Below, piece by piece: positions 1 through 17,607 of a DNA stretch of 17,607 nucleotides. Made by a program: the position numbers and the translations under genes. The first letter of the stretch is position 1; each line of letters opens with the position of its first letter. The notes below the pieces were generated by a model. The model did not search any database. It worked only from the letters and a program-made list of their open reading frames with translations, and was not told the origin of the DNA. Origin of the DNA: Marine Group I thaumarchaeote (GTDB lineage Archaea; Thermoproteota; Nitrososphaeria; Nitrososphaerales; Nitrosopumilaceae); contig CP054849.1 in assembly GCA_044358425.1 (NCBI GenBank), positions 1,227,629 to 1,245,235 of the forward strand, written 5' to 3'.

Positions 1-2386
1 CACTTGTCATGTGAAGAACTTGTTTATGTCTAGAGCCATCACGGTATACAGTCATACCTTTGAGTCCAAGTTCATGGGCTAACAAGTATGATGATTTGAC
101 ATCTTCAGCTGTTACATCATATGGCATGTTGATTGTCTTTGCAATTGCGTTTCCAATCCAATCTTGCCATACACTTTGAGCCATAAGGTGATCAGCCCAG
201 TGTATATCCATTGCAGTTACAAATACATCTTGCATCCATTGTGGAATTTCATCAATTCCACTCAATGAACCATAGTTGTCTGCAATCTTTTCAAGAATTT
301 CATCTGTGTAAAGACCTTCATTTCTAAGAGCTTCTTCAAGAATCTTATTTGTGTAAAAGAATCTTCCAACAGTTACTCTTTTCTCAAATACAAGTGCAAA
401 TGCCGGTTCCATTCCATTTGAACAATCTGCAATCATAGAAAGTGTACCAGTTGGTGCTACTGTAGTAGTTAGTACATTTCTAATTCCATGTTTTTTGATT
501 TTTTCAATCAATGGACCCCATTCAAATGAATGAGCACTTTTAGATTTTTCATAATATCCAGCTACTGGAATTTTACCTTCAGGATATTCAGTCTTGGAAC
601 ATAATGGGAACTCACCACGAGATGTAGCAAGTGCAACACTTTCTTCCATAGAATAGTAAGTTAGTGCTTCAGAGAGTTTTGATTGTAGTTCATATCCTTC
701 TTTGGAATTGTATGGAATTTTGAGTTTGTATAATAGATCTGCTACACCCATTACTCCCAATCCAATTCTTCGAGACTCTTTTGAGGCTACGTTGATTTCA
801 GGAACTGGATAATGATTTACATCAATAATATTATCCAAAAATCTTGTTGTTTTTCTAATGATTTCTTCATATCCTTGCCAATCAAATTCGTAAGAACCGT
901 CTGCTTGTTTTTGTGCATAGTTTACTAAGTTGATTGAGCCTAGATTACAAGACTCGTATGGGTAAAGACTTTGTTCACCACATGGATTTGTTGCTCTAAG
1001 TGGAGCCTGTCTTGCTTTAGCAAATACATTGTATTTGTTAATTTGATCAAAGAAGATCAATCCAGGTTCTGCACTTTTCCATGCAGATAATGCAATTAAA
1101 TCAATTAATTGATGTGCGTTAATTTCTTTGACGGGTTTTCTATCACGTGGACTTCTCAAGACATAATTTCCATCTTCAGTATTTACAAGTGCATTCCAGA
1201 AATCTTCCCAAATACCAACACTGACATTAAAGTTTTCTAAAACACCAGGTTCTGTTTTGTTTGTAATGAATTTTTCAACGTCTGGATGCCATGCTTCAAT
1301 AATTCCCATGTTTGCACCACGTCTTTTACCACCTTGTTTAACAACTTCAGTAACTGTATTGATGATGTTCATGAAAGATACTGGACCAGATGCAACACCA
1401 GAAGTTGATGCAACAATATCTCCTTCTTCACGAAGATCAGAATAATTGATTCCAACGCCGCCACCAGATTTGAAAATTAATGCAGCATCAGAAGTAGATT
1501 TCATAATCTCTTCCATGCCATCATTCATTCCAAGTACAAAGCATGCAGATAGTTGTCCTAATCTTCCACCAGCATTCATCATTGTTGGTGAATTTGGCAA
1601 AAAGTTTTGTGCGGTCATCATTTCAAAGTATTCAGTAATTCTATCAGAATAAACTTCAAGTTTTTTTGCTGCTAATAATGTCAAAAGATCTTTGAAACTT
1701 ACTTTCATTTGACCTTTGTTAGCAAGTGTGACATAATGATTGATTAAAGATCTAAAATGCCACTTGTTGAAGAAATAATCTCCTACTTTGAATTTATAAT
1801 CAAAAGCATCTAATTTTTCAAGATAAGATTTGGCTTCATCTACATCTTGTTTGTTATTACCAGATTTATCAAATATCTGAGAATCATATAGCATATCCCC
1901 AATTCCAACTAAAATTGCTACTCTCTCAAACATTTGTGTTGGAGTCTCGATAATTTCACTTTTTGAGTTTCTAAAGAGGTATCTTGAGGCTAAAACTCTC
2001 AAACAATTAAGATCAAATTTCTTTGAAACTGGATCCAATGATTTTAGGTTTAAAACTCTCATCTTCTCATCTCTGAGTTTTCGTCTTTCGTGTCTGTAAA
2101 CTATGTAAGATTTTGCGATATCACTATTACCACTATCAATCAAAGTTGATTCAACAATATCCTGAATATCCTCTACAGTTGGTGATTTTTCACTTGTAAA
2201 TCCCTGTTCAACAAGTTTGTTAAGCACTTCTCCTGCTAGTTTATCTGCAACACCACGGTCGGCTTTGGAGGTGGCGGCTAATGCCTGGTATATGGCATTT
2301 GAAATTTTATCTAAATCGAAAGCCGTAACTGTACCATTACGTTTACGGATCTCATTGATCGTATTTTCTATTTGTGAATTATCCAT
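1..2386 (-). CDS. nrdJ: Class II (adenosylcobalamin-dependent) ribonucleotide reductase with N-terminal ATP-cone; 3' end lies beyond the left edge of the window
   Basis: Absent from the ORF track (no stop in window); translated by hand in key segments. Starts MDNSQIENTINEIRKRNGTVTAFDLDKI (ATP-cone), then GQLSACFV (~1540-1560), RATNPCGEQSLYPYESCNLGSINL (~930-1000; thiyl Cys/Glu loop) and TVAPTGTLSMIADCSNGMEP (~405-465). ATG at 2386 is preceded by GGAGA; an alternative in-frame ATG lies at 2404. Class II rather than class I is inferred from the archaeal context and no beta-subunit gene in the window. Confidence 0.92.
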   Translation of the reverse strand, partial: MDNSQIENTINEIRKRNGTVTAFDLDKISNAIYQALAATSKADRGVADKLAGEVLNKLVEQGFTSEKSPTVEDIQDIVESTLIDSGNSDIAKSYIVYRHERRKLRDEKMRVLNLKSLDPVSKKFDLNCLRVLASRYLFRNSKSEIIETPTQMFERVAILVGIGDMLYDSQIFDKSGNNKQDVDEAKSYLEKLDAFDYKFKVGDYFFNKWHFRSLINHYVTLANKGQMKVSFKDLLTLLAAKKLEVYSDRITEYFEMMTAQNFLPNSPTMMNAGGRLGQLSACFVLGMNDGMEEIMKSTSDAALIFKSGGGVGINYSDLREEGDIVASTSGVASGPVSFMNIINTVTEVVKQGGKRRGANMGIIEAWHPDVEKFITNKTEPGVLENFNVSVGIWEDFWNALVNTEDGNYVLRSPRDRKPVKEINAHQLIDLIALSAWKSAEPGLIFFDQINKYNVFAKARQAPLRATNPCGEQSLYPYESCNLGSINLVNYAQKQADGSYEFDWQGYEEIIRKTTRFLDNIIDVNHYPVPEINVASKESRRIGLGVMGVADLLYKLKIPYNSKEGYELQSKLSEALTYYSMEESVALATSRGEFPLCSKTEYPEGKIPVAGYYEKSKSAHSFEWGPLIEKIKKHGIRNVLTTTVAPTGTLSMIADCSNGMEPAFALVFEKRVTVGRFFYTNKILEEALRNEGLYTDEILEKIADNYGSLSGIDEIPQWMQDVFVTAMDIHWADHLMAQSVWQDWIGNAIAKTINMPYDVTAEDVKSSYLLAHELGLKGMTVYRDGSRHKQVLHMTS

Positions 2387-2419
2387 TATAATATCTCCTA
2401 CCATAGTAGAAAAGTAGTA

Positions 2420-2432
2420 TCTATAAACTTTC
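2420..2432 (-). promoter_or_regulatory. Putative BRE/TATA box of nrdJ
   Basis: Minus strand reads GAAAG-TTTATAGA about 35-45 nt upstream of ATG 2386, matching the archaeal purine-rich BRE + TTTAWA layout. Confidence 0.5.
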
Positions 2433-2635
2433 AACAGAATTTGTTTGAAATTTTAGTTGAACATTCTTTACAACGCTCCAATGTTAATCGTAGTGGTACA
2501 AAATCATAAAATGTTAAACGAGTATCGCTTAATAAAATAGATGACAACAGACAAGTTAATAATTATTAGAACTTAGTCCATACTTTCATTACGATGATCG
2601 CATTTAGAATCGGAGCTTAATACAATGTATTATAA

Positions 2636-4804
2636 TTAGACAACATATGGGGATTTACATTTTGGACACTTGTCTTCAAATGGTTCATCCTTAAATCCAC
2701 ACTCACCACAAATAGAAGTTGCTCTTACAAGTTTAAAAGATGGCACTAGTTCTGCAGTTTTTTCAATTGATTTTTTGATGTCATCGACTTTCAAGTTTTT
2801 ATCAATATCTAAAGTAACAAGCAAGCCACCATTGAGTAATTTTGAGATTTTATTGGACTCAGAAATTATTTCAGATTTTGGAGTATATTCATCAATTTCT
2901 GAAGCATTAATCACAGTACCTTGAGAATAAAAGTCACTTTCCATAGAATTAAGACTAGAGTTTTTACCGTATTTTTCACCATCTAAAGTAGCAAAACGTG
3001 ATGAACCCTCTGTTTCAGTCATACAAATAGTCACATTGTCGCCTAATTCTTTACCCTTTTTGGCGCCAACATCAACTGCAGTTTCAATGACTTTGTGAAG
3101 CACAGCACGACCATCCTTATTGTCTTTAAACCCTAAAATGTTGAAAATAGACTCTCTAAGACCAACTAGATTTATGACCAAGGAGACAGAACTTCTTTGC
3201 ATATATTGAGTATTTTTAGCAAGAATAGGATTGAGTCCTCTTCTGGTTAAATCTGAGATTTCTTTCTTTCTAAGTGCCATTGAAGCCAATGCAGGTTTCA
3301 TTAGCAAAGCTAATCTTGCTCTAAAGTAAGTCTCATCTTTGTTTGATTCAAATGCCAATCTAGGAAGGTTAATGGAAACAGATTGCAAGTTAATTGCAAG
3401 TGAATTATTAGATTTTGAAGAACCATTAGTTACTCCGCTACTTGCAGTTTGACCTTTGGCAATCATTACTTTGCCACCAAGTAATAATATTTCAGAAATT
3501 GATTGTGATACATCAGTGATCTTTCCTTTTTCGTTATCAATTATCAAACCAATTTTTGGTATTGGTGTAATTGCAACATAATTTTTGTATGCATTAATAA
3601 TTGAATGAATTATTTTTGTATCAGAGCCTAGTTGTAATCTAATTGATATGTTTGTACTAGTTTTATTATATTTAGAAGTAGTAGAAGCAGTTGCAAATGT
3701 ATTAGTTAATTGTTCTTCTAGTTCTGAAAGTGATTTAGAATGTTTTGCAAACACTGCAACTAATCCATCTAAGACAACTTCCTTTGAAGCCTCTTTTGAT
3801 AAAAGTGAAATTAAAACAGACAAAGAAGTTGTAATTTCATTTAGTTGTTTTGAAGCATTGATTCTTGATACATCAAGATATTTTCCTCCAAGATCAAGTC
3901 CATCATCAAGTAATTCTTTTGCATTTACAAATATTGTATCAGGAATCATAGACCAAACTCCAGGATTTGAAATATGTATATCTCCAGATAAGTGATTGTC
4001 AGCTACATCTTTTGGTAAAACGTTTGTTAACAAATGTTCAGCAAATATTTTTTGACCAGTATTAAACAAAAGACCTTCAGCACCATTATCAACATTATCT
4101 AAATTAGAAACCATTTCTTGAACATCATAAACAGGCATACCTAGGCGTGCAAGTTTGTTTCTGTATTCCTCATGACCGTGTTCTAAAAGAACTGAATTTA
4201 CCATATCACGAATTACTGCGCCTGTAAGATAGGTGGTTTGATACTTGTAGATTCTGTTTTCAACTTCTTCGGTAATCTTTTGTGCTAATTCTAGTGGAAG
4301 ACTCCCTTCACGTACTAGTGATTGAATAATTTTATGAGAATTAAATTCTTCAATAGATTCGCCAGATGTTCTGACATACATTTTTCCACTTTCAATAATT
4401 GATCTTTCTTCAATTTGTCTGGCTAAACTTAAAACAAGTTTTCCAAGATTAGTGATTGTATAACGTCTTTCAGATTTGTTAAGTGCAACTAGTGATTGTC
4501 TAAGTAATTTTCTCAAGTGATATGCAAATTTTCCACTTTCTTTTTTAGATTTGAAACCAGCTAATGATTTTAGCTCAGAATATGTTAATGGTCCTTTAGA
4601 ATTTAAAATTCTAAGAATATCAATTCTATTAGGACTTGCCATGACAGAGAAGATCATTCTGACACGTTTTGATGTGGATTGTAAAATTCCACCACGTTTT
4701 GGATCAGAGTCGTCGTCGATATCAGAATCTAAATCTGCATCTAGATCATCATCATCAGAATCTAAATCCATATTCATTTCTAATTCTTCTTCGTTCATTG
4801 TCAT
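2636..4804 (-). CDS. ArsR-like winged HTH / ATP-cone / NrdD-like (class III RNR fold) fusion protein, predicted catalytically inactive
   Basis: wHTH: IFSVMASPNRIDILRILNSKGPLTYSELKSLAGF...KFAYHLRKLLRQSLV...YTITNLG. ATP-cone-like: YVRTSGESIEEFNSHKI...IRDMVNSVLLEHG. NrdD hallmarks: HLSGDIHI, VSINLPRLA, INLVGLRE, SRFATLD, and a C-terminal Zn ribbon CGECG...CPKC. The ORF track starts at TTG 4816; ATG 4804 or 4798 is more likely. Confidence 0.85.
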   Translation of the reverse strand: MTMNEEELEMNMDLDSDDDDLDADLDSDIDDDSDPKRGGILQSTSKRVRMIFSVMASPNRIDILRILNSKGPLTYSELKSLAGFKSKKESGKFAYHLRKLLRQSLVALNKSERRYTITNLGKLVLSLARQIEERSIIESGKMYVRTSGESIEEFNSHKIIQSLVREGSLPLELAQKITEEVENRIYKYQTTYLTGAVIRDMVNSVLLEHGHEEYRNKLARLGMPVYDVQEMVSNLDNVDNGAEGLLFNTGQKIFAEHLLTNVLPKDVADNHLSGDIHISNPGVWSMIPDTIFVNAKELLDDGLDLGGKYLDVSRINASKQLNEITTSLSVLISLLSKEASKEVVLDGLVAVFAKHSKSLSELEEQLTNTFATASTTSKYNKTSTNISIRLQLGSDTKIIHSIINAYKNYVAITPIPKIGLIIDNEKGKITDVSQSISEILLLGGKVMIAKGQTASSGVTNGSSKSNNSLAINLQSVSINLPRLAFESNKDETYFRARLALLMKPALASMALRKKEISDLTRRGLNPILAKNTQYMQRSSVSLVINLVGLRESIFNILGFKDNKDGRAVLHKVIETAVDVGAKKGKELGDNVTICMTETEGSSRFATLDGEKYGKNSSLNSMESDFYSQGTVINASEIDEYTPKSEIISESNKISKLLNGGLLVTLDIDKNLKVDDIKKSIEKTAELVPSFKLVRATSICGECGFKDEPFEDKCPKCKSPYVV

Positions 4805-4920
4805 GACTAAGATCAAGTATAGGAGTAAATAAGACTTATGACTAGAATGATTCTAATAAAAAAATACTACAATGTAAGAAAAAATATTAGAAAAAATTTA
4901 TAAAAAAGATCATGTTGTGA

Positions 4921-5082
4921 TCATTTTTCTTCTACATCAAGTGAAAATTCAGATGTAGAAAGCTTTTGTCCACAAGATGGACACTTACCATTAGTAGGAT
5001 TCAAAACATCTTTTAATGATTTTAGCATTTTCATATCTTTGATCTTTTCTCCACATTTTCCACACGTTATTTCTACAGACAT
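4921..5082 (-). CDS. Small zinc-finger protein (53 aa, CxxC...CPxCG)
   Basis: Not in the ORF track. Hand translation: MSVEITCGKCGEKIKDMKMLKSLKDVLNPTNGKCPSCGQKLSTSEFSLDVEKK*. It has two Cys knuckles and fills the intergenic gap on the same strand as its neighbours. Confidence 0.8.
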   Translation of the reverse strand: MSVEITCGKCGEKIKDMKMLKSLKDVLNPTNGKCPSCGQKLSTSEFSLDVEEK

Positions 5083-5151
5083 AAAATAATGATATTTTTA
5101 AAATAATTAAGAATCTATTCTGATTTTTTTTAATAATTCAAACAAATATTT

Positions 5152-5517
5152 TTACTGTTTTTCTATGATGATTCCTCTTTCATCAAAACCAGTGATTTTT
5201 GCTCTAGTTCCAACAGGTAAATCATCAGGAGTTGCAATTCCTCCCATAAATCCAGAAATTCTCAATTCTGCATCATCTAATTGAAGTACTACAAAAGCGT
5301 ATGGAGTATGTTTTTCAAATCCTGCAGGTGGTACTGTAATTATAGTATAAGTAGCAATTGAGCCTGTACCCTCTAAAATAGTGTCTTCAAATCCTTTACT
5401 TCCACATTTTTGGCAGTAATATACTGTGGATAAATGAAGATGACCGCAACTTGAACATTTGTGAGTTAAAACTTTACCTTCTTTTGCATTTTCAATCATT
5501 TGTTCTTCGACAGACAT
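5152..5517 (-). CDS. DUF35-family Zn-ribbon/OB-fold protein (acyl-CoA-binding thiolase partner)
   Basis: CSSCG...YCQKCGS Zn ribbon, then GSIATYTIITVPPAGF...PYAFVVLQL OB fold. The start was moved to ATG 5517, just after the thiolase stop, to avoid the overlap given by the ORF-track start at 5568. Confidence 0.9.
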   Translation of the reverse strand: MSVEEQMIENAKEGKVLTHKCSSCGHLHLSTVYYCQKCGSKGFEDTILEGTGSIATYTIITVPPAGFEKHTPYAFVVLQLDDAELRISGFMGGIATPDDLPVGTRAKITGFDERGIIIEKQ

Positions 5518-5518
5518 C

Positions 5519-6673
5519 TTACACACTCTGGAAAACATGTACTGCACAACTTGCACCAGTTGCACCAAAATTATGAGTTAAACCAACTTTAGCATCTTTC
5601 ACAGTTCTTGCACCAGCTTTACCAGTTAATTGATCATATACTTCAACTACTTGTCCAATTCCAGTTGCACCAATTGGATGTCCTTTTGATTTAAGACCAC
5701 CTGATGGATTAATTGAGATATCTGAATTTAATTTTGTTCTACCTTCACGAATAGCTTGTATACCTTGTCCTTTATCAAAGAAACCTAAATCCTCAGTGTC
5801 AACAACTTCTGCAATTGTAAAACAATCATGTACTTCTGCAAAGTCTACATCTTTTGCAGTAATACCTGCCATCTTGTATGCAGCTTCTGATGCAATCTTT
5901 GTACTTGGAATAGTTGTCATCTGTTCTCGTCCTTGTAATGCAGCAGGTGAACCACCTCTACCAGATCCAGTTACTTCAATGTAATCACCACCGTGTGCTT
6001 TTGCAAATTTTTCAGAACATAAAATTACAGAACTTGCGCCATCAGAAAATGGACAGCAATCATAAAGTTTTAGAGGACTAGCAACTACTGCAGAGTTCAT
6101 TACATCGTCAACAGTAATTTTTTTCTGCATGTGTGCTTTTGGATTTAAAACTCCATTATCATGATTCTTTACTGCAACTGCTGCAAAGTCTTCTTCAGTT
6201 GCATCAAACTCTGTCAAGTAAGCTCTTGCCATTGATGCAAACAATCCTGGAAACGATGCACCTGCTTGACCTTCATAAAAGAAATCAGAACAATATGCAA
6301 AGTAAGTTGTTGTCCATTCAGTTCCAGTGTGAGTTACTTTTTCAACACCAGTTGCAATTAGACAATCATAAAATCCTGCTGCAATATTTGCATAGGCTTC
6401 TCTAAATGATACAGAACCACTTCCACAAGCTGATTCAATAGTTAATGATGGTTTATCTGGAATTCCCAACCTACTCATCAAAACAGGACCAATGTGTACC
6501 TGCTTATCTGCAATTCCAAAAACGTTAGAAATGTAAGATGCACCAATCTCTTTTGGGTCAATTCCTGCACTTTCTATAGCTGCAACTGATGCCTGAGTAG
6601 TAATATCTGCAATACTATCGGCTAATTTTCCATATTTGGTGCTTCCAGCGCCAAGAACACAAACCTTTTCCAC
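5519..6673 (-). CDS. Thiolase (acetyl-CoA C-acetyltransferase family, archaeal/SCP2-like type)
   Basis: ESACGSGS (catalytic Cys), EVHDCF, NPSGGLKSKGHPIGATG, C-terminal HNFG, and adjacency to DUF35. GTG 6673 is preferred because TTTTTATAG (6695-6703, minus strand) sits at leaderless-promoter spacing from it. Confidence 0.93.
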   Translation of the reverse strand: MEKVCVLGAGSTKYGKLADSIADITTQASVAAIESAGIDPKEIGASYISNVFGIADKQVHIGPVLMSRLGIPDKPSLTIESACGSGSVSFREAYANIAAGFYDCLIATGVEKVTHTGTEWTTTYFAYCSDFFYEGQAGASFPGLFASMARAYLTEFDATEEDFAAVAVKNHDNGVLNPKAHMQKKITVDDVMNSAVVASPLKLYDCCPFSDGASSVILCSEKFAKAHGGDYIEVTGSGRGGSPAALQGREQMTTIPSTKIASEAAYKMAGITAKDVDFAEVHDCFTIAEVVDTEDLGFFDKGQGIQAIREGRTKLNSDISINPSGGLKSKGHPIGATGIGQVVEVYDQLTGKAGARTVKDAKVGLTHNFGATGASCAVHVFQSV

Positions 6674-6694
6674 AAAACACACTGACCAAAGTCC

Positions 6695-9106: not shown

Positions 9107-10411
9107 TCATACAACAATAATTTGTCTTTCAATGAGATTTTTGATTATAATTAAGAATTCATCATCAGAAATTTGTTCTTCATTCCACCAACCAGCAATA
9201 GTTTTAGTCCATTTTGGAATTTTCCAATCACTTTGTGAAGATTTTTCTAATGTTGAAATTTCAATTATTTGGGTATCAACTAGAAATTTTATTCCTTCAA
9301 GAAATTCTGAATCTACAATTTGACCAGTAGACCACCAATCTCCACTTTGTTTTATCCACATTGGGACTAAAGGCATATCAGGAGGCAATCCCTTATCAAA
9401 CCCTGAAATTTTCAAAATTCCTTGGGATTGTGGTTCCACATCAAATGCTACGTGCCAATATCCCATTTGATCCATACTTTGGATAAAATCAATTGGTTTA
9501 TCGTTGACAGTAACGGAGAATTTTTCATTTCCAGAAATTGGGGGAAATTCAAAATTAGCATATGTTGAAAAGGGATAGCTGGTTGTTCCGCTAATAGTTA
9601 GAACATTTCCTTTCTCATCAAATTTTGCACCATAATAGAATGTACCAGGTGAATCATATCTAAAATCAAATGTTCCGTCATTCTTTTGTGTAGAAATTGG
9701 AACTACAGTATTATCAACTGGTGCAAAACAAGAGTAGAAACGTACTGGTTCAGATACAGATGGATCAGGGTAAATGGCAAAGTCTAGAATCTGTCCAGGT
9801 TCAATTTTTTCAATTCGTTCAATGTTGTGAGCAACATCTAACATGTATGTTTCATGGCCATGTACAATTGCATACACTTTGGGATTGTATACTGTATAAT
9901 TTCCAATATTCTGCATTTTTCCAGTAACATGTCCATCATCATGAGTGATCAAAGTTTTATCATAAATGATTTGAATTGGAAGACGATCTTTTTCAGTTTT
10001 AGTATAAGTTAGTTCTGCTGTTAACAATTCTGGAGTTAGACCATGAATCTCAGGAAATTTTGTTTTAAATGGTATATCAGTCATTGCAGGAATTGGCACA
10101 TGAACAAATTGTTTTGTAATTTTTTTATCATCAGTGTCAATTACAGAAATTGTAATTGTTGGAATCAATGCAAAATCATTTTGATTTTTTACATTTCCAA
10201 CTACAGTGAAAATACCTTGATTGTCATAGTAACCAGCATATTGACTTTCAGGAATAAAGACATCAGCAAAGGCCATGTCAGGAATGATAAGAAGAATAGT
10301 GAATAAACCCAACAATAGAAGAGTTTGCGGCTGAAATACTCTAGAAAGAGTTGATAATGTCTTCAAATCCAGATGTAGATTTTTCGAGTGAACCTGGTCT
10401 ATGCTCTTCAA
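9107..10411 (-). CDS. Secreted/surface protein with Ig-like (FxLYD-like) domains and two C-terminal Trp-rich repeats; true start probably near 10315-10340
   Basis: Signal peptide LLLLGLFTILLIIPDMAFA|D; two beta-rich repeats (VVGNVKNQND, VTGKMQNIGN); C-terminal P.W.K...WW...QI.D.EFL x2. The ORF-track start overlaps the upstream gene by 71 nt and is probably too long. Confidence 0.75.
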   Translation of the reverse strand: MKSIDQVHSKNLHLDLKTLSTLSRVFQPQTLLLLGLFTILLIIPDMAFADVFIPESQYAGYYDNQGIFTVVGNVKNQNDFALIPTITISVIDTDDKKITKQFVHVPIPAMTDIPFKTKFPEIHGLTPELLTAELTYTKTEKDRLPIQIIYDKTLITHDDGHVTGKMQNIGNYTVYNPKVYAIVHGHETYMLDVAHNIERIEKIEPGQILDFAIYPDPSVSEPVRFYSCFAPVDNTVVPISTQKNDGTFDFRYDSPGTFYYGAKFDEKGNVLTISGTTSYPFSTYANFEFPPISGNEKFSVTVNDKPIDFIQSMDQMGYWHVAFDVEPQSQGILKISGFDKGLPPDMPLVPMWIKQSGDWWSTGQIVDSEFLEGIKFLVDTQIIEISTLEKSSQSDWKIPKWTKTIAGWWNEEQISDDEFLIIIKNLIERQIIVV

Positions 10412-10970
10412 CTAACTTGTCTACCAACTCGGTTACTTTAATATGATATCTTTTTTTCAAATCTACCATTTTAGTTTCAACTAATCCATCATCAACAATT
10501 TGTGAAAGATAAAGTGAAACGGTTGAAGGGGATTTTTTAACTTCGTTTACTAATTCTGAAAATTCTAATCCATCTTCTTTAATTAAAGCAAGTAACAAAG
10601 CGCGTGGAGTTTCTCTTCTGAGTGCTTTGATAACAATTGATTCTTCTTCAGTAATATTTGGAGAATAAAACCTGACTTGTCTAGGACCACGCATTACTTT
10701 AACGAGGCCACCATCTTCTAGTTTTTTTAGATAATGAGACAAAACTCCATTTTTTAATCCAGATGAACGCATAATTTCACGGAATTGAATTCCAGGATTA
10801 TCATGTGTAATTCCCCCAATATGCAAAAAGATATGGGCTAAATGATACCCATGAAACAGGTGTGGAATAATTATTGGAATTGCTAAAATTGCGATTACTC
10901 CAGTAACAACAACAGAAAACAAAGTAGATTTTCTTTCAAGTATGTTTTCAGGCTTAAACAATGTGATCAC
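10341..10970 (-). CDS. Tandem winged-helix (ArsR/MarR-like) transcriptional regulator with an N-terminal hydrophobic, His-rich segment
   Basis: DNPGIQFREIMRSSGLKNGVLSHYLKKLEDGGLV and DGLEFSELVNEVKKSPSTVSLYLSQIVDDGLV are two wHTH units. Residues 17-35 are hydrophobic, followed by PHLFHGYHLAHIFLH. Confidence 0.8.
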   Translation of the reverse strand: MITLFKPENILERKSTLFSVVVTGVIAILAIPIIIPHLFHGYHLAHIFLHIGGITHDNPGIQFREIMRSSGLKNGVLSHYLKKLEDGGLVKVMRGPRQVRFYSPNITEEESIVIKALRRETPRALLLALIKEDGLEFSELVNEVKKSPSTVSLYLSQIVDDGLVETKMVDLKKRYHIKVTELVDKLVEEHRPGSLEKSTSGFEDIINSF

Positions 10971-11020: not shown

Positions 11021-12586
11021 CTATGAGTGAATTGGAATTATTTGTTTTTGAGTCAAAAATTCAAGAATTTCAAAAAAAGTTTTATCATTAATTTCGCCAT
11101 TGATCCACCAACCAGCAATAATTTGTATCCAAGAAGGTATTTTTTCTACTTCAGAAATTTCAGATGAATTATCATAAATTGTGATAATTTTATTTTCAAT
11201 TAAATAATTAATGGTATCAATTAACTTACCATCATTAATTTTTCCTTCTGACCACAACCGGATGTCATTTGTAACCCAATCAGGAATTAAATTAGAATCA
11301 ATATTTTTATTTTCATGAATTGCAATAGGAATACTAGTTGTTGCAAATTCATTACCATCTAAATTTTTAAAATTGAGGTTCACAATTCCTGAAATATTTT
11401 CAGGAATAAAAAAATCTGCAACATTGTGCTCAGTCTTGGAATCAGTACTAATTCCATTTTGCTTGAAAATTAATTGATTGTTTTGTGTTATAGAAAATTC
11501 ATAATTTGTGGAAACGGGTTTGTTTTTCAAGAAAATATCAGTTATATCAAAAATAATTTTAGCATTTGAATTAGATTCAAGGTATTCTGGTTCCCAAGAA
11601 ACAAGAATTCTAAACTGTCCATTGTCTGTAACTGAACTAATATGAGTATAATCACGGTCTGGCGTAATTTCAAAATTCATTCCATTTAGATTTGCACTGT
11701 TTTCAAAAATATTTACCAATTCCTTTTGATATATTATGAAATGAACAACACGGCCTTCAGTAAAAAAATCATCAACATTAACAATATCATCTGATAACTT
11801 TATGTCATTTACAGACATTGAAAATCCAGACAAAAGTAGTGCACCAAATTCTTTTGGAATTATAATTTCTTCATGAACAACTGAAGTTTGATTAATATTT
11901 TTTAATGACCATTCAAAAGGCATTGAATAACTAATTTTTTTTAATTTTGGGTCATATTGAAAATTTGAAATCTCATCATAATATGTCACTACTTTGATAT
12001 TTTGATTTCCAAAATCTGGATCAATAAAATCATGAGTAGTTGTTTGTGCAATTGAAATTCCTGCATTAAAAACAAGAGGGGTTTCTAGTTTTTGAGAATA
12101 ACCATCAGCCGTAATGATACTAATATCTAATTTGTATAGTCCGCCTTCACTAAGTTTTGGACCTTTTACATCAATTAATCTACTTTCTAAACCTAGTAAT
12201 GAACCAAAAAAATCTTCACCACTGTCTTTTTCTTCAACAATAATTGAATCAGTATCTTCAGATACAAAATTGAAAACTAGAAAACCATTATCAGCTTTGA
12301 ATTCTTTTTCAAAAAGAAATTGTTCTCCACGTTCGGATTTTACTAAAAATGTTACATCACGTAATGTGATTTTAGAATCAAAATCAATTAAAGCGATTGA
12401 AATTTGTTGATCATTATTTTCTATATCATCTTTTGTTGAAGATGAAACTTCTACACTTACAAGTTTACCATTTAATTCAACTGGTGGAAATATTTCACTT
12501 CCGACACCATGACCATATGCGTCATAAAAATTAATGATTAAACCAGAAGAAAATATTAAAAATAAAATTAATAATAAATTTTTCAA
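11021..12586 (-). CDS. Secreted/surface protein with predicted N-terminal His after signal cleavage, VHEE motif and two C-terminal Trp-rich repeats; paralogue of 12828..14543
   Basis: Signal peptide ...YDAYG|HGVG. Motifs shared with the paralogue: GGLYK, TYYDE, MPF.WS, VHEE..PK.F, VHF.I. C-terminal IPDWV...W.EG.I.D and IPSWI...GWW..G.I.D. Confidence 0.8.
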   Translation of the reverse strand: MKNLLLILFLIFSSGLIINFYDAYGHGVGSEIFPPVELNGKLVSVEVSSSTKDDIENNDQQISIALIDFDSKITLRDVTFLVKSERGEQFLFEKEFKADNGFLVFNFVSEDTDSIIVEEKDSGEDFFGSLLGLESRLIDVKGPKLSEGGLYKLDISIITADGYSQKLETPLVFNAGISIAQTTTHDFIDPDFGNQNIKVVTYYDEISNFQYDPKLKKISYSMPFEWSLKNINQTSVVHEEIIIPKEFGALLLSGFSMSVNDIKLSDDIVNVDDFFTEGRVVHFIIYQKELVNIFENSANLNGMNFEITPDRDYTHISSVTDNGQFRILVSWEPEYLESNSNAKIIFDITDIFLKNKPVSTNYEFSITQNNQLIFKQNGISTDSKTEHNVADFFIPENISGIVNLNFKNLDGNEFATTSIPIAIHENKNIDSNLIPDWVTNDIRLWSEGKINDGKLIDTINYLIENKIITIYDNSSEISEVEKIPSWIQIIAGWWINGEINDKTFFEILEFLTQKQIIPIHS

Positions 12587-12827: not shown

Positions 12828-14543
12828 CTATTCTACCCTCAAAATTCCTTCTTTGATCAAAAATTGAATTCCTTGAACAAATGAATCGTCATCAATTGTT
12901 CCGTCAGCCCACCATCCAGCATTATTTTTTACCCAGGATGGAACATCATTTCCAGAATTAGTTCCTTGTGTGGTATCTGGGATTTTTAAAATATTTTCTT
13001 TAACTAAAAATTGAATTCCTTGAATGAAAGAATTATCATCAATTGTTCCGTCAGCCCACCATCCAGCATTATTTTTAATCCAAGATGGGATTGATGAAGT
13101 TTCTAAAATTACTGATTCTTTAGGAATAGTAGATTTTGTTGTGCCTGGACCTAGTTCAATTATGGTAGAACCAATGCCAGAATATGTTGGATCATAATCT
13201 AATCCAGTTCCATAAACTAGAATATCAAATCTAATTGGACCATCAGTTGGAATGTAAATATTTTGGATGTCAATTCCTTCTGTTGAAACTATTCCTGGAT
13301 TTACTGAGTCATCGCCATTATATCTTGCAATTTCATTATCAAATTCATCAATAATTACGTAAGTATATCTTACATCTTTGATGAGGTCTCTATTTTCATT
13401 GAAAAATGTAAACTCAAAAGGTACATCCTGATTTGCACCATAATTTCCGTCCCATGAAATATTTACTGTTGTAGGAGTTTGTTCATAATTTTGAGTATCT
13501 ACAAGATAAAATTCAGTTGAACTTCTTTCAGCTTCATCTAGTGGAACTAATTTGAAATCCATTTGAGGGTTATCAAAATTATTTGGACCTAATTTATTAT
13601 TGATATTTACTAATTCATTTTTAGAAATTAAGAAGTGTACAATGTTTGTATCATCAGAGGTATAAGGATCATTGAGTATTGCTCTTTGATCAATTTCTAT
13701 ACCATTAACATAGCCTTTGAATTGCTTACCTTCCCCATATGGTGCAAATGTTTTTGGAACTCTAATTTCTTCATGTACAACTTGCACTAAATCAACATAG
13801 TCTGGACTCCAATCAAATGGCATGTCAAATGAGATTGAATTGTCAGATGTATCAAATGCAAAGTTATCTACCTCATCATAGTAAGTTTTTATAACAACTG
13901 GTATTTCTTCAGCATTTGCTGTTTTGAAAAAGAAATCTTGTTCTTGTGCAATACTAACAAAAGTTTCATAAGTTAATCTCTCAGCTAATACACTTCGAGG
14001 ACTAGTAGCTGCTTCAATGTCTACAGTAATCTTGTAAAGTCCACCTTGAATAAATATAGGACCAGTCATCGATGGTCTTCCACATATGTCTAAATTTTCA
14101 TCATTACATTCTGCTCCTTGAACAAACAGAGCACCTGGAGCACTAGCGTGCTCAGAACCACCATAAATTGTACAAGTTTCAATTGGATCTTTGTCACATC
14201 CAAGTTGTGGTTTGATTTTTACATCTAGTCTTCCATCATTATCATAAAACAAATTTCTTGCTAAAAGCTCTCCACTTTGCCAAAGTTCAACTCTATATGT
14301 TACCTTATCAAGATTCGTGTCAGTTAATGTATCAAAGAAACGAATTTGCATATTTGTTGGATCAAGATATCCAACAGTGATATCAGATGGATCTAGTTGT
14401 GTTCTTACAGTTACTTCCATATCACCAAAAGTTATTGGTTCAGCTTGATCCCCACCAAGCCCGTGTGCAAATACATCTGGAATAATCGCAGGAATAGTAA
14501 AAATTCCAACTACAATAATCAACAATCCAATCTGCTTAAACAA
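12828..14543 (-). CDS. Secreted/surface protein with predicted N-terminal His after signal cleavage, VHEE motif and two C-terminal Trp-rich repeats
   Basis: Signal peptide ...PDVFA|HGLGG; two Cys pairs (probable disulfides); [10 protein letters not shown]; tandem PSW(I/V)[26 protein letters not shown]. Confidence 0.85.
12859..13076. repeat. Intragenic direct repeat with 147-bp period (Trp-rich module duplication)
   Basis: An exact 41-nt match at 12889-12929 and 13036-13076, and an exact 19-nt match at 12859-12877 and 13006-13024, both offset by 147 nt (49 codons). Confidence 0.9.
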
Positions 14544-14656: not shown

Positions 14657-15457
14657 ATGAAATTTTTATTAGTTTTATTATTAATTCCACTTTTCACAAT
14701 TCCTGCATTTGCTGAATCTCAAACTTTACCAACAGATCAAGGAACATTAGATGTCAAAATATCTTATGATGATGTTAAAACTGGTCAATTAACTAAGTTA
14801 CCAATAGAATTCATTAATCCAATGACACAAAAAACTCAAGTTCATATAGATTATAGAATTACAATTGCAGAATCTGGTGAAACATTATTTCAAACTCCAA
14901 ATTTAATTCATACGTCTGAAGGAATCATAAATGGATTCAAATTTGAATTTCCAAAAGATGGATTATATAATATTCAGATAGATGCTGAAGGAATTTTATT
15001 CACTCCAATTCCAAAAGAATCTGTAACGTTTGATATCTTAGTAGGTGAAGCTGCTGCTCAACCATCAGTTCCATCTAATGAACAAGGCGGCGGTTGTCTA
15101 ATTGCAACAGCAGCTTACGGCTCAGAACTTGCACCACAAGTTCAGATGTTAAGAGAAATTCGTGACAACCAATTGATGAACACAGAATCTGGCTCTGCAT
15201 TTATGTCTGGATTTAACGAATTGTACTATTCTTTTAGTCCAACAATTGCAGACATGGAACGTGAAAGCCCAGTCTTCAAAGAGATTGTAAAAGCTGGCTT
15301 GACTCCAATGCTCTCAACTTTGACAATTATGGAAAGTGTAGAAACTGAAAGTGAAGTCTTGGGACTTGGACTCTCAGTAATTGCATTGAATCTTGGAATG
15401 TACATCGGACTTCCAGCATTTGGTATCGTTAAAGTCATTCAATTAAGAAAAAATTAG
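14657..15457 (+). CDS. Secreted, membrane-anchored protein with CFI-box-CTERM domain
   Basis: Signal peptide MKFLLVLLLIPLFTIPAFA|E; beta-rich domain (Q.HIDY, HTSEG); GGGCLIATAAYGSELAPQVQMLREIRDN...YYSFSP; C-terminal hydrophobic helix with a basic tail. Confidence 0.85.
   Translation: MKFLLVLLLIPLFTIPAFAESQTLPTDQGTLDVKISYDDVKTGQLTKLPIEFINPMTQKTQVHIDYRITIAESGETLFQTPNLIHTSEGIINGFKFEFPKDGLYNIQIDAEGILFTPIPKESVTFDILVGEAAAQPSVPSNEQGGGCLIATAAYGSELAPQVQMLREIRDNQLMNTESGSAFMSGFNELYYSFSPTIADMERESPVFKEIVKAGLTPMLSTLTIMESVETESEVLGLGLSVIALNLGMYIGLPAFGIVKVIQLRKN
15086..15393 (+). repeat. CFI-box-CTERM coding module, copy 1 (copy 2 at 17300-17607)
   Basis: The two 308-nt stretches are colinear with no net indel and share long nucleotide blocks (ATTGCAACAGC, CTTACGGCTCAGA, GAACACAGAATC, TTTAGTCCAA, CTCAGTAATT). 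Confidence 0.85.
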
Positions 15458-15515: not shown

Positions 15516-16916
15516 ATGAAGACTAAAGCAATAAGCTCAATCTTTGTACTATTTGCTATCGCAGCAGGTATGGCCTCAATGGCACCAGCTGCTTTTGCAG
15601 ACCACGCCGAAGTTGCAATTGGTGCAGTAGAAGAATCTGGATTCTCACAGTCTTGTGTTGAAACAGGTTGTTACACACCAATGATTGCAACAGTTGACGT
15701 CGGTGGTGTTGTAACCATGACAAACACAGATCCAACAGGAGTTCACACGTTCACATCAGGAACTGTTGACGGATTTGCTCCATCACCTGATGGTATATTT
15801 GATTCAAGTGTAATGATGTCCGGTGATTCATTTGAATGGCAAGCTAATGTGTCTGGTCAAGTACCATACTATTGCATGCTACATACTTGGATGCAAGGAA
15901 CTATTGTAGTACAAGGAAGTGCACCTGTTGTTGCACCAATACCTCAACCAATTTTACAAAGCGATGTAAAACTAAAAGTTGGTAACTCTTCATACAAAAG
16001 TGGCGATACAGTATTTTATTCAGGTAAAGTAACTAATGCAAAAGTAGGTTCTGCTATAACCATAACTCTAACTTCACCTAATGGGGATTTGGTTGCAGTA
16101 GAACAATTATCTGTTGGTACGGATGGTGAATTTAGATCATTCTTTTCAACAGAAGGTTCGTTGTGGGGTACTAATGGAATGTACACAATTCAGGCACAAT
16201 ATGTCTCCAGTCAAGACTCAGTTCAATTTAAATTCAAAAATATGTCTACCACTCCAATAAATCCTACACCCATAGTTTCTGAAAAAATTAATGTTTATGC
16301 TGATAATAATTCTTATAATTCAGGAGCATTGGTTTCAATAAGTGTCAGTACTGCAAGTAATGCAAATGTTGCAATTAGTGTAAGTGATTCTGACGGAAAT
16401 AATATTGTAACAAGAACAGTTACCACCGATGGTTCTGGAAATGGTTCAGTCCAATTCAAATTACCAAATTCTGCTAAAAATGGAACGTATGTTGTAGATG
16501 CAACTGCAACAGTTTCAGGTAAGAAAATATCTGATTCTACCAAATTTACAGTATCTTCAAATTCTACAGGTAACATTACCATAGTATCATTATCTCCAAC
16601 TGATCAACAAGGAAATCCCGTATCCTCATTTAATAAAGGTAAGTTAGGATTTGTCAATGTTGTTTTAGACTCTGATTCCAGTACTACCTCCCTTGTAACC
16701 ATTAATCTATTTGATTCCCAGTTAACTAGTCTAGGTATAGGTTCGTTCAAAACTACCTTAAACTCTGGACAATCTGAAATGTCATTGTCATTTTTTATTC
16801 CAAATGATGCAGAGTTTGGAAGTGGAGATATTTATGCAAACGTATTTTCTGATTGGCCAAGTCAAGGAGGAGTTCCACTAACAGGTGAATCTTCAACTAA
16901 GGTACGATTACAATGA
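15516..16916 (+). CDS. Secreted type-1 (blue) copper cupredoxin domain protein with C-terminal Ig-like repeats
   Basis: Signal peptide ...PAAFA|DH; type-1 Cu ligands GVHTF and YYCMLHTWMQG (His, Cys-x2-His-x2-Met); Pro-rich linkers; beta-sandwich repeats (SYKSGDTV...GMYTIQA, SYNSGALV...GTYVVDA). Confidence 0.88.
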   Translation: MKTKAISSIFVLFAIAAGMASMAPAAFADHAEVAIGAVEESGFSQSCVETGCYTPMIATVDVGGVVTMTNTDPTGVHTFTSGTVDGFAPSPDGIFDSSVMMSGDSFEWQANVSGQVPYYCMLHTWMQGTIVVQGSAPVVAPIPQPILQSDVKLKVGNSSYKSGDTVFYSGKVTNAKVGSAITITLTSPNGDLVAVEQLSVGTDGEFRSFFSTEGSLWGTNGMYTIQAQYVSSQDSVQFKFKNMSTTPINPTPIVSEKINVYADNNSYNSGALVSISVSTASNANVAISVSDSDGNNIVTRTVTTDGSGNGSVQFKLPNSAKNGTYVVDATATVSGKKISDSTKFTVSSNSTGNITIVSLSPTDQQGNPVSSFNKGKLGFVNVVLDSDSSTTSLVTINLFDSQLTSLGIGSFKTTLNSGQSEMSLSFFIPNDAEFGSGDIYANVFSDWPSQGGVPLTGESSTKVRLQ

Positions 16917-17607
16917 AATCCATATTATTTCTGATATTGCTTCTAGGTGTATCTATGACTCCATTATCTTTTGCAGAATCAATTACAATTCAGACTAACA
17001 ATGAACAATTTTCAAGTGGAGACATTGTATCTATTGATGGCCAAGTTTCTGGAGGAAATACGGGGGATTTTGTAGCACTAGAAATTAAAAATCCTAGCGG
17101 TGAGACAATTCTAATTCGAACCGTAACTTTAGGTGATGGGGGTTCATTTGATTTGAAGTTTAAAATACCTGAATCCGGAGAGAGTGGAAGTTATGATATT
17201 GTAGCTAATGCCCAACTTGGAGGCCAAACCATTACTGAAACTAAAACAATTAGTAAAACAAATACTCAATCAACTTCTTCAAACACTTCATCTAAGGAAG
17301 GTGGGGGTTGCCTGATTGCAACAGCCACTTACGGCTCAGAGTTATCCCCACAAGTTCAACTACTTAGAGAGATTCGTGATAATCAATTACTGAACACAGA
17401 ATCAGGTACTGCATTCATGAGCACATTCAATGACATTTACTATTCATTTAGTCCAATAATTGCTGATTATGAGCGTGAAAACCCATACTTCAAAGAAGCT
17501 GTAAAGATTGCAATTACTCCAATGATCAGTTCATTGTCTCTAATGGAAAACGCTGAATCTGAATCTGAAGTTTTGGGCATTGGAATCTCAGTAATTATGT
17601 TGAATTT
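16913..17607 (+). CDS. Secreted Ig-like domain protein with CFI-box-CTERM; truncated at the right edge
   Basis: Not in the ORF track. ATG overlaps the upstream stop (ATGA). Hand translation: MKSILFLILLLGVSMTPLSFA|ESITIQTNNEQFSSGDIVSIDGQV...GSYDIVANA, a Ser/Thr linker, then EGGGCLIATATYGSELSPQVQLLREIRDN in the same frame. Confidence 0.88.
   Translation, partial: MKSILFLILLLGVSMTPLSFAESITIQTNNEQFSSGDIVSIDGQVSGGNTGDFVALEIKNPSGETILIRTVTLGDGGSFDLKFKIPESGESGSYDIVANAQLGGQTITETKTISKTNTQSTSSNTSSKEGGGCLIATATYGSELSPQVQLLREIRDNQLLNTESGTAFMSTFNDIYYSFSPIIADYERENPYFKEAVKIAITPMISSLSLMENAESESEVLGIGISVIMLN

Follow-up and report, generated by a model that had tools for sequence, protein, structure and literature searches.

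A conserved NrdD-like gene upstream of nrdJ

A stretch of 17,607 nucleotides (nt) from the genome of a Marine Group I thaumarchaeote of the family Nitrosopumilaceae (GenBank assembly GCA_044358425.1, contig CP054849.1, positions 1,227,629 to 1,245,235; here termed the window) carries, on its minus strand at positions 2636-4804, a gene for a protein of 722 amino acids (aa) that combines a winged helix-turn-helix (wHTH), an ATP-cone and a barrel of the type found in NrdD, the class III (anaerobic) ribonucleotide reductase (RNR). The gene lies directly upstream of nrdJ, which encodes a class II RNR. Judged by its sequence, the gene is a catalytically dead paralogue of archaeal NrdD that has kept the ATP-cone, the barrel and the C-terminal zinc (Zn) ribbon and has gained a wHTH.

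The open frame that contains the gene extends from 2636 to 4816 on the minus strand, and residue numbers given here are those of the translation of this frame (P0001). Translation most likely begins with the ATG at 4802-4804 (MTMNEE...), the stop codon being at 2636-2638, since a TATA-like box 21 nt ahead of this ATG is conserved among orthologues and the nearest database relative is also 722 aa long. All features of the protein that follow are encoded on the same strand.

The N-terminus is an acidic, D/E-rich tail (4682-4804) that is probably disordered; the predicted local distance difference test score (pLDDT) is below 50 at residues 1-42, and the length of the tail differs among orthologues. 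It is followed by the wHTH (4430-4654, residues 55-129), which matches PF24038 (DUF7347) with 40.7 bits and PF12840 (HTH_20) with 33.1 bits, the cut-offs being 27.6 and 27 bits. The putative recognition helix, GKFAYHLRKL, is at 4505-4534. Among 50 diverse members of the family Y99 and H100 are invariant, and G95, F97, L101 and L104 are present in at least 90%. The model for the ArsR/SmtB metalloregulator subfamily, NF033788, gives the wHTH protein 23.8 bits, under its cut-off of 55.

The ATP-cone (4163-4381, residues 146-218) matches PF03477 with 38.5 bits (cut-off 25.8), and V148, R149, F158 and I163 are invariant in the same 50 members. Its N-terminal hairpin reads VRTS, as against the canonical KRDG; thus one Arg is invariant and the second basic residue is replaced. 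In the NrdD of Prevotella copri (PcNrdD) the basic pair of this hairpin, Lys7/Arg8, holds the triphosphate, according to passages of the paper on that enzyme (PMC11226230). Among three true archaeal NrdDs encoded next to family members, one has VRTS as well and two have VRRT or VRGT.

The NrdD-type alpha/beta barrel (2717-4099), in which the catalytic residues are missing, matches PF13597 (NRDD) with 100.9 bits (cut-off 26.2). In this match residues 471-722 are placed on profile positions 275-529 of 562, and thus it ends before the glycyl-radical part of the profile; a further match, to profile positions 4-99, covers the N-terminal part of the barrel. The NrdD motif SINLPR (3359-3376) is retained, and VGLRE and RFATLD are present. 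HLSGDIHISN (3965-3994) is a remnant of the triphosphate-binding HxHD motif in which the second His has become Ser and the Asp has become Asn, and TASSGVTNG (3422-3448) is a remnant of the finger loop in which the thiyl-radical Cys is replaced. The Zn ribbon CGEC...CPKC (2657-2710; CxxC...CxxC) is not followed by a glycyl-radical loop, and the C-terminus, KSPYVV, is reached only six residues past CPKC. The protein has five Cys (598, 703, 706, 717 and 720), four of which belong to the Zn ribbon. The family has a single copy in the source genome. An original prediction made from the DNA letters had listed HLSGDIHI, SINLPR, VGL.E, RF..LD, the Zn ribbon, ASSGVTNG, the five Cys and the early end, all of which are present as described, and its placement of a wHTH and an ATP-cone ahead of the barrel agrees with the Pfam matches.

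Loss of the active site throughout the family

The catalytic residues were compared in an alignment in which three true archaeal NrdDs stand beside 70 members of the family. The family members consist of 50 diverse representatives and 20 proteins translated from fetched loci, and the three reference enzymes are encoded directly beside family members in Bathyarchaeia and score 488-518 bits across the full Pfam NRDD profile. The roles of Gly711, Cys416, Cys171, the NxN flap and HxHD were taken from those passages of the P. copri NrdD paper (PMC11226230) that treat them.

Neither the Cys of the first strand (beta-1) nor the finger-loop thiyl Cys is found in any of the 70 members, and the neighbouring column of the Cys pair has a Cys in only two. 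The flap ENANLQ (NxN) is deleted from every row of the printed alignment block. The second His of HxHD is kept in one of the 70 and the Asp in 10. The radical Gly is retained in 13, and 26 end before its position. In agreement with these losses the NCBIfam equivalog model for NrdD, TIGR02487, gives the window protein 91.4 bits, under the cut-off of 326.35. Thus the absence of the glycyl loop and of the thiyl Cys, which had been predicted for this one protein, is borne out against true NrdDs and, for the beta-1 and thiyl Cys, extends to all 70 members.

Members of about 750 aa from Bathyarchaeia have a recognisable yet decayed tail, Y-x-R-...-Y-x-P-L-x-x-W, and the Nitrososphaerales forms, including the window protein, end right after the Zn ribbon. 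The truncation is therefore not private to the window sequence. As far as the aligned residues can tell, the protein can be described as a homologue of class III RNR in which the catalytic residues are missing, and the loss of the Cys is universal in the sample.

A true NrdD among the metagenome representatives, P0269 (1206 aa), should also be mentioned. It has an intact finger loop of the QCC type and the glycyl loop RITGYY, and, immediately ahead of the finger-loop Cys pair (SNCCAY), an insertion of about 440 residues that looks intein-like.

Radical-chemistry partners and the reductase of the genome

The source genome is a single contig, 91% complete, with 202,863 bases read as N, and this is the scope of all negative results at the genome level. 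No NrdG activase is encoded in the window, as had been noted in the original prediction, and the best NrdG-like match of the genome, with 49.3 bits against a cut-off of 131, is QueE-like. In the genome no Gly_radical domain was detected, and the NrdR model TIGR00244 had no match there or among the NCBIfam matches of the protein. A separate glycyl-radical peptide together with NrdG had been considered as a way in which activity might be restored; neither was found in the genome, nor was NrdR. Among 121 genomes of the order, one has NrdG2 above the cut-off.

The reductase gene that is present, nrdJ, occupies 2-2386 on the minus strand (start codon 2384-2386) and runs off the window. It encodes a class II B12-dependent enzyme with a canonical ATP-cone (TIGR02504, 713 bits), and no other class I/II barrel was detected in the genome. 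Its frame in the genome is 1227 aa (1227672-1229978), longer than a plain class II enzyme, and the best NCBIfam model has 1684 positions; an inserted element, for example an intein, may be present in nrdJ.

Fold and predicted dimer

A search of the PDB with the single protein (phmmer) gave no match. A family profile built from 50 diverse members matched five distinct NrdD sequences in that database, with E values of 2e-37 to 5.7e-30. The AlphaFold2 model has a mean pLDDT of 86.7 and a predicted template-modelling score (pTM) of 0.76, with disorder limited to the acidic N-terminal 42 residues. When this model was compared with the PDB by Foldseek, the listed rows of rank 1-34 were all NrdD, with target-normalised TM-scores of 0.52-0.66, and class I RNRs came next. 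The predicted structure has an NrdD fold.

A homodimer was predicted for residues 240-726 with a score of 0.77, as compared to 0.00 for the best of three controls. In calibration, 20 of 30 proteins solved as pairs attained this mark, as did one of 23 solved as single chains. The runs have at least 88% of contacts in common, with a partner pLDDT of at least 82. It should be noted that the pass may reflect mere likeness, because NrdD dimers have already been solved. The predicted interface includes a hairpin (309-320) and two helices (326-342 and 368-385), and in the HMMER alignment this region lines up with the specificity-site hairpin of NrdD. In the mapping of the PcNrdD specificity site onto the family, Asn298 was located on the PDB chain, but the stretch around it aligns poorly to the family and Glu290 could not be placed, and the correspondence is given here for the region and not for single residues.

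Selection and distribution

The ratio of nonsynonymous to synonymous substitution rates (dN/dS), computed against the eight closest orthologues, is 0.057-0.103 for the whole gene. The wHTH is the most constrained part (0-0.014), followed by the ATP-cone and linker (0.013-0.066), the C-terminal half of the barrel (0.048-0.095) and its N-terminal half (0.11-0.21). The protein is thus under purifying selection and is not decaying.

Of 8000 candidates scored in a word-index search, 4074 are proteins with E ≤ 0.001; those listed, 120 in number, have lengths of 709-815 aa and the domain order in common. Among representatives at 50% identity there are 1216 matches at E ≤ 0.001, of which 182 are at E ≤ 1e-30. 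All 30 loci fetched have an intact reading frame, and internal stops occur in just two of the 150 matches listed. The gene is present in all 56 sampled genomes of the family to which the window belongs.

Forms of 750 aa are found in Bathyarchaeia, including Hecatellales and Bathyarchaeum (named records), and forms of about 570 aa that lack the Zn ribbon are found in Caldarchaeales ("Aigarchaeota"). More distant members come from the Asgard lineages Baldrarchaeia, Odinarchaeia and Helarchaeota, as assigned by source names. Homologues in other Nitrososphaerota had been anticipated and are present; that range was too narrow, since the family reaches Bathyarchaeia, Caldarchaeales and Asgard lineages. 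A mis-annotation of such proteins as anaerobic RNR had also been foreseen, and the databases do name members in this way: the NCBI label on the Asgard proteins is "anaerobic ribonucleoside-triphosphate reductase".

Metatranscriptome contigs from four runs in three studies (24 runs listed) carry the gene at 99% identity or more, with DNA carry-over being possible. The intergenic region at about 2394-2560 is without a contig in three of these four runs, and in the fourth it is spanned by one contig (2383-2648), a pattern that suits separate transcripts and a single one alike.

Gene neighbourhood

Neighbouring genes were counted at 80 loci from Nitrosopumilaceae and 80 from Bathyarchaeia, of which 46 have at least 2500 nt of sequence downstream. 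In Nitrosopumilaceae nrdJ is directly downstream on the same strand at 73 of the 80 loci, with a gap of 151-551 nt, and the remaining seven are at a contig edge with at most 552 nt left. Of six additional loci, drawn from the same family or order, four have nrdJ downstream and one has it divergent.

A different set of neighbours is found in Bathyarchaeia. There a true nrdD is downstream on the same strand at 29 of the 80 loci, mostly past a glutaredoxin-like gene, nrdJ is in this place at five, pyrB is nearby at 11, and nothing was found at 35. When only the 46 loci with sufficient downstream sequence are considered, 27 have an RNR gene and nine have pyrB. At four of 14 distant loci pyrH-like genes are divergently upstream. 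The identity of the neighbours was checked with one example of each type (pyrH_arch, 198 bits; PyrB, 383 bits; NrdJ, 400 bits; also the glutaredoxin-like protein). Linkage to nrdJ, as originally proposed, is thus kept throughout Nitrosopumilaceae, and the proposal was too narrow for other lineages, where a true nrdD, nrdJ, pyrB or pyrH can be the neighbour. From these counts it follows that the family tracks RNR genes whatever their class, and pyrimidine genes as well.

Promoters and the spacer before nrdJ

The promoter of the NrdD-like gene contains a box, GTCATAAGTCTTATTTACTCC (4822-4842, minus strand), separated from the ATG by 17 nt (4805-4821). Within the box an inverted repeat, ATAAG-T-CTTAT (4829-4839), overlies the TATA-like element. 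The box is conserved across the aligned upstream stretches (80 extracted, of which 10 rows were printed) and occurs once in the genome; it is a candidate site of autoregulation.

The spacer between the NrdD-like gene and nrdJ (2387-2635, minus strand) has several conserved elements in addition to a TATA box and a Shine-Dalgarno sequence. In the direction of transcription these are a conserved palindrome at 2592-2601, GCGATCATCG; an inverted repeat (2476-2493) whose arms are lineage-specific, upstream of the TATA box of nrdJ; after it the box GCGTTGTAAAGAATGTTCAAC (2456-2476), which is the form that the conserved box GCGGTGTCAAnATTnTTGAAC takes in the window; and the invariant TATA box TTTATAG (about 2421-2427). 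A GGAGA Shine-Dalgarno sequence is ahead of nrdJ. The place of the inverted repeat is fixed, and its arms and spacing vary by lineage (TATGAA-n-TTCATA, CTCCAAC-n4-GTTGGAG and TTCCAA-n6-TTGGAA).

The variable arms were examined for pairing at the RNA level. In the register 15-21/26-32, 66.1% of cells are paired, and 15 cells have a double change as against 6.8 ± 1.9 in shuffles (1 of 500 shuffles). The register 16-21/23-28 has 72.5% of cells paired (0 of 500 shuffles), but it has a loop of 1 nt, which is impossible for RNA. No single pairing register fits a structured RNA upstream of nrdJ, and by the pair counts the repeat may be a hairpin or an operator. An Rfam search of 2300-5200 gave matches at the level of chance alone (best E 0.57). 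In a scan of the whole genome each of the three long boxes has one match, and the repeat has its own site and three chance-like matches.

In Bathyarchaeia a motif, TACAGAATTTTATAC, is found in the spacer before nrdD or the glutaredoxin-like gene. With up to two mismatches it has 27 matches at 25 of the 80 loci, compared with 3.8 in shuffled sequences. Every match is on the sense strand, and at two loci (L194 and L210) the motif is also present 71 nt upstream of the NrdD-like gene.

Directly upstream of the NrdD-like gene of the window is an open reading frame of 53 aa (4921-5082, minus strand) with a CxxC...CxxC zinc finger. Its coding sequence is conserved in the printed Nitrosopumilaceae rows that reach it, and its sole family match, TIGR04104, is at 21.8 bits, under the cut-off of 45. 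The stop codon of this frame overlaps with a palindrome, GATCACAACATGATC (4908-4922).

Possible role of the protein

The protein is probably a dimer that senses nucleotides and regulates the transcription of RNR and pyrimidine genes, a role that we favour somewhat over all others taken together. Since the catalytic residues are lost, a DNA-binding domain has been gained, and the gene sits before that of the sole working reductase, it is probably an undescribed nucleotide-sensing gene switch. The protein would form a dimer of the NrdD type, and would read the nucleotide pool via the ATP-cone and possibly also via the old specificity-site region at the dimer interface. The nucleotide state would then alter the binding of the two wHTH domains to promoter DNA. 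In the source organism the sole RNR gene, nrdJ, and probably also the gene for the regulator itself, would have their transcription tuned in this way; elsewhere among archaea the protein would act on nrdD, nrdJ and pyrimidine genes. That the protein binds DNA and nucleotides we infer, and likewise the sign of the regulation and the operator.

A more far-reaching form of this reading is put forward tentatively, with somewhat less than even confidence. Here the family would be the archaeal counterpart of NrdR, made from a dead reductase. It would act as a dimeric switch with two inputs, ATP/dATP at the ATP-cone and dNTPs at the retained specificity-site region, and would set the transcription of whichever class of RNR a cell has, together with that of genes of pyrimidine synthesis, across Nitrososphaeria, Bathyarchaeia and Asgard archaea.

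Several observations weigh against a transcription regulator. The hairpin of the ATP-cone is VRTS rather than KRDG, and for this reason the binding of ATP or dATP is uncertain. The conserved neighbourhood shows a functional link and leaves the kind of link unspecified, and no RNR or pyrimidine gene is nearby at 10 of the 46 well-covered Bathyarchaeia loci, nor within 19 kb at one of the six additional loci of the same family or order. The inverted repeat before nrdJ is a poor fit to a fixed protein operator, because its arms and spacing change although the recognition helix is nearly invariant. No clear motif common to the promoter of the NrdD-like gene and that of nrdJ was found, and no regulon can be defined, since each conserved box has a single occurrence in the genome. 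In addition, the wide occurrence in the phylum, with a match at E ≤ 1e-5 in 291 of 401 genomes, may include true NrdD.

Some of these points would suit a role at the protein level, in which the dead barrel, as a regulatory subunit without catalysis, binds the working RNR, or buffers or reports dNTPs, and the wHTH serves for protein contacts or localisation. Linkage to RNR genes is as compatible with such a role as with gene control, purifying selection acts on the barrel and the region of the dimer interface, and no convincing operator was found. However the class of the partner RNR varies, NrdJ here and NrdD in Bathyarchaeia, which disfavours one conserved protein interface; the neighbours pyrB and pyrH do not encode RNR subunits; and it is the wHTH that is most constrained (dN/dS 0-0.014), with a putative recognition helix that is nearly invariant family-wide. 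A role at the protein level is thus considered unlikely. Somewhat less likely again is a factor associated with DNA in a non-specific way, linked to chromatin or replication, with broad binding to DNA that is coupled to dNTP supply. The wHTH with its long acidic tail and the lack of a conserved operator common to the promoters would be expected of such a factor, but a tight, strand-conserved position immediately ahead of RNR genes in two classes of archaea would not, nor would a single copy in the source genome.

That the protein still acts as an enzyme, be it a class III RNR whose radical is supplied in trans or a barrel with a new, non-radical chemistry, is very improbable. The Gly at the radical position in 13 of 70 members and the conservation of the barrel could be taken in its favour, but none of the 70 has the thiyl or the beta-1 Cys, the NxN flap has been lost by deletion and HxHD has degenerated; the genome has neither NrdG nor a Gly-radical domain; and Bathyarchaeia carry the family gene beside a complete NrdD. 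A decaying pseudogene or an artefact of annotation, which the weak NRDD score of 100.9 bits might suggest, has a negligible probability and was rejected. The frames are intact in the 30 loci, with stops in two of the 150 listed matches, and dN/dS is low (0.06-0.10); the family is large (4074 proteins at E ≤ 0.001 among the 8000 scored, the 120 listed having the domain order in common) and the fold is confident.

Literature searches, which included the RNR surveys PMC3019208, PMC2795772 and PMC9531940 and covered subscription journals in part, gave no description of such proteins, and no archaeal RNR-specific regulator was found in them. Important here is that a large and strongly conserved family is placed directly before RNR genes of two classes, so that the control of archaeal RNR becomes testable with one protein and two short DNA fragments. 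If regulation of transcription is its role, the family would be a clear case in which the allosteric machinery of a radical enzyme has been reused as a transcription sensor. In addition, the current labels wrongly assign an anaerobic RNR to aerobic ammonia oxidisers in metabolic reconstructions.

Other genes of the window

Upstream of the NrdD-like gene, at 5152-6682 on the minus strand, are a thiolase (NF004720, 447 bits) and an overlapping DUF35/BbsA-like protein with a Zn ribbon and an OB-fold, which represent the usual archaeal acetoacetyl-CoA thiolase pair. Three genes on the same strand (9107-10411, 11021-12586 and 12828-14543) encode large secreted or membrane-anchored proteins that have a common C-terminal module, IP.W.K..AGWW..G.I.D..F...I.FL, in one or two copies; a Pfam scan of two of the three gave no family. 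A second wHTH protein (10341-10970, minus strand) is MsvR/ArsR-like below the cut-offs, has N-terminal membrane helices, and is unrelated to the NrdD-like gene. On the plus strand the proteins encoded at 14657-15457 and 16913-17605 have a C-terminal module in common, GGGCLIATA.YGSEL.PQVQ.LREIRDNQL..., and the first of them is without a Pfam match. Between these two genes a secreted protein of 466 aa is encoded, with an MG2 domain and an N-terminal part that is blue-copper-like.

Comparison with known systems

The wHTH likens the protein to ArsR/SmtB and other archaeal wHTH regulators, as seen in the matches to PF12840 and PF24038 above their cut-offs. The sensor part of the window protein, however, is the scaffold of a nucleotide enzyme and not a metal site.

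The closest likeness in sequence and in fold is to NrdD, as represented by the enzymes of phage T4, Thermotoga maritima, P. copri and Streptococcus thermophilus. The ATP-cone, the barrel and the C-terminal Zn ribbon are homologous, the motifs NLPR and HLSGxIH are kept, and a homodimer like that of NrdD is predicted. In contrast to these enzymes the window protein is without the glycyl-radical loop, the thiyl Cys, the beta-1 Cys and the NxN flap, its HxHD is degenerate, no NrdG was found in its genome, and it has an additional N-terminal wHTH with an acidic tail. Thus, on the evidence of its residues, it is a homologue of NrdD that fails every catalytic test of membership, and functionally it does not belong to the enzyme family.

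In parts of PMC9110341, NrdR is described as an RNR-specific repressor, found in the majority of bacteria and in some of the archaea, that consists of a Zn ribbon and an ATP-cone. As in NrdR, an ATP-cone is joined here to a DNA-binding module and is encoded with RNR genes, and the proposed logic would be the same, with the nucleotide state of the ATP-cone setting the binding to the promoter. However, in NrdR it is the N-terminal Zn ribbon that binds DNA, whereas the window protein has a wHTH in this place and a C-terminal Zn ribbon of the NrdD type, and includes an entire dead RNR barrel, about 480 residues long. Since the DNA-binding module and the barrel differ, and TIGR00244 gives no match, the protein would be an analogue of NrdR and not a homologue beyond the ATP-cone.

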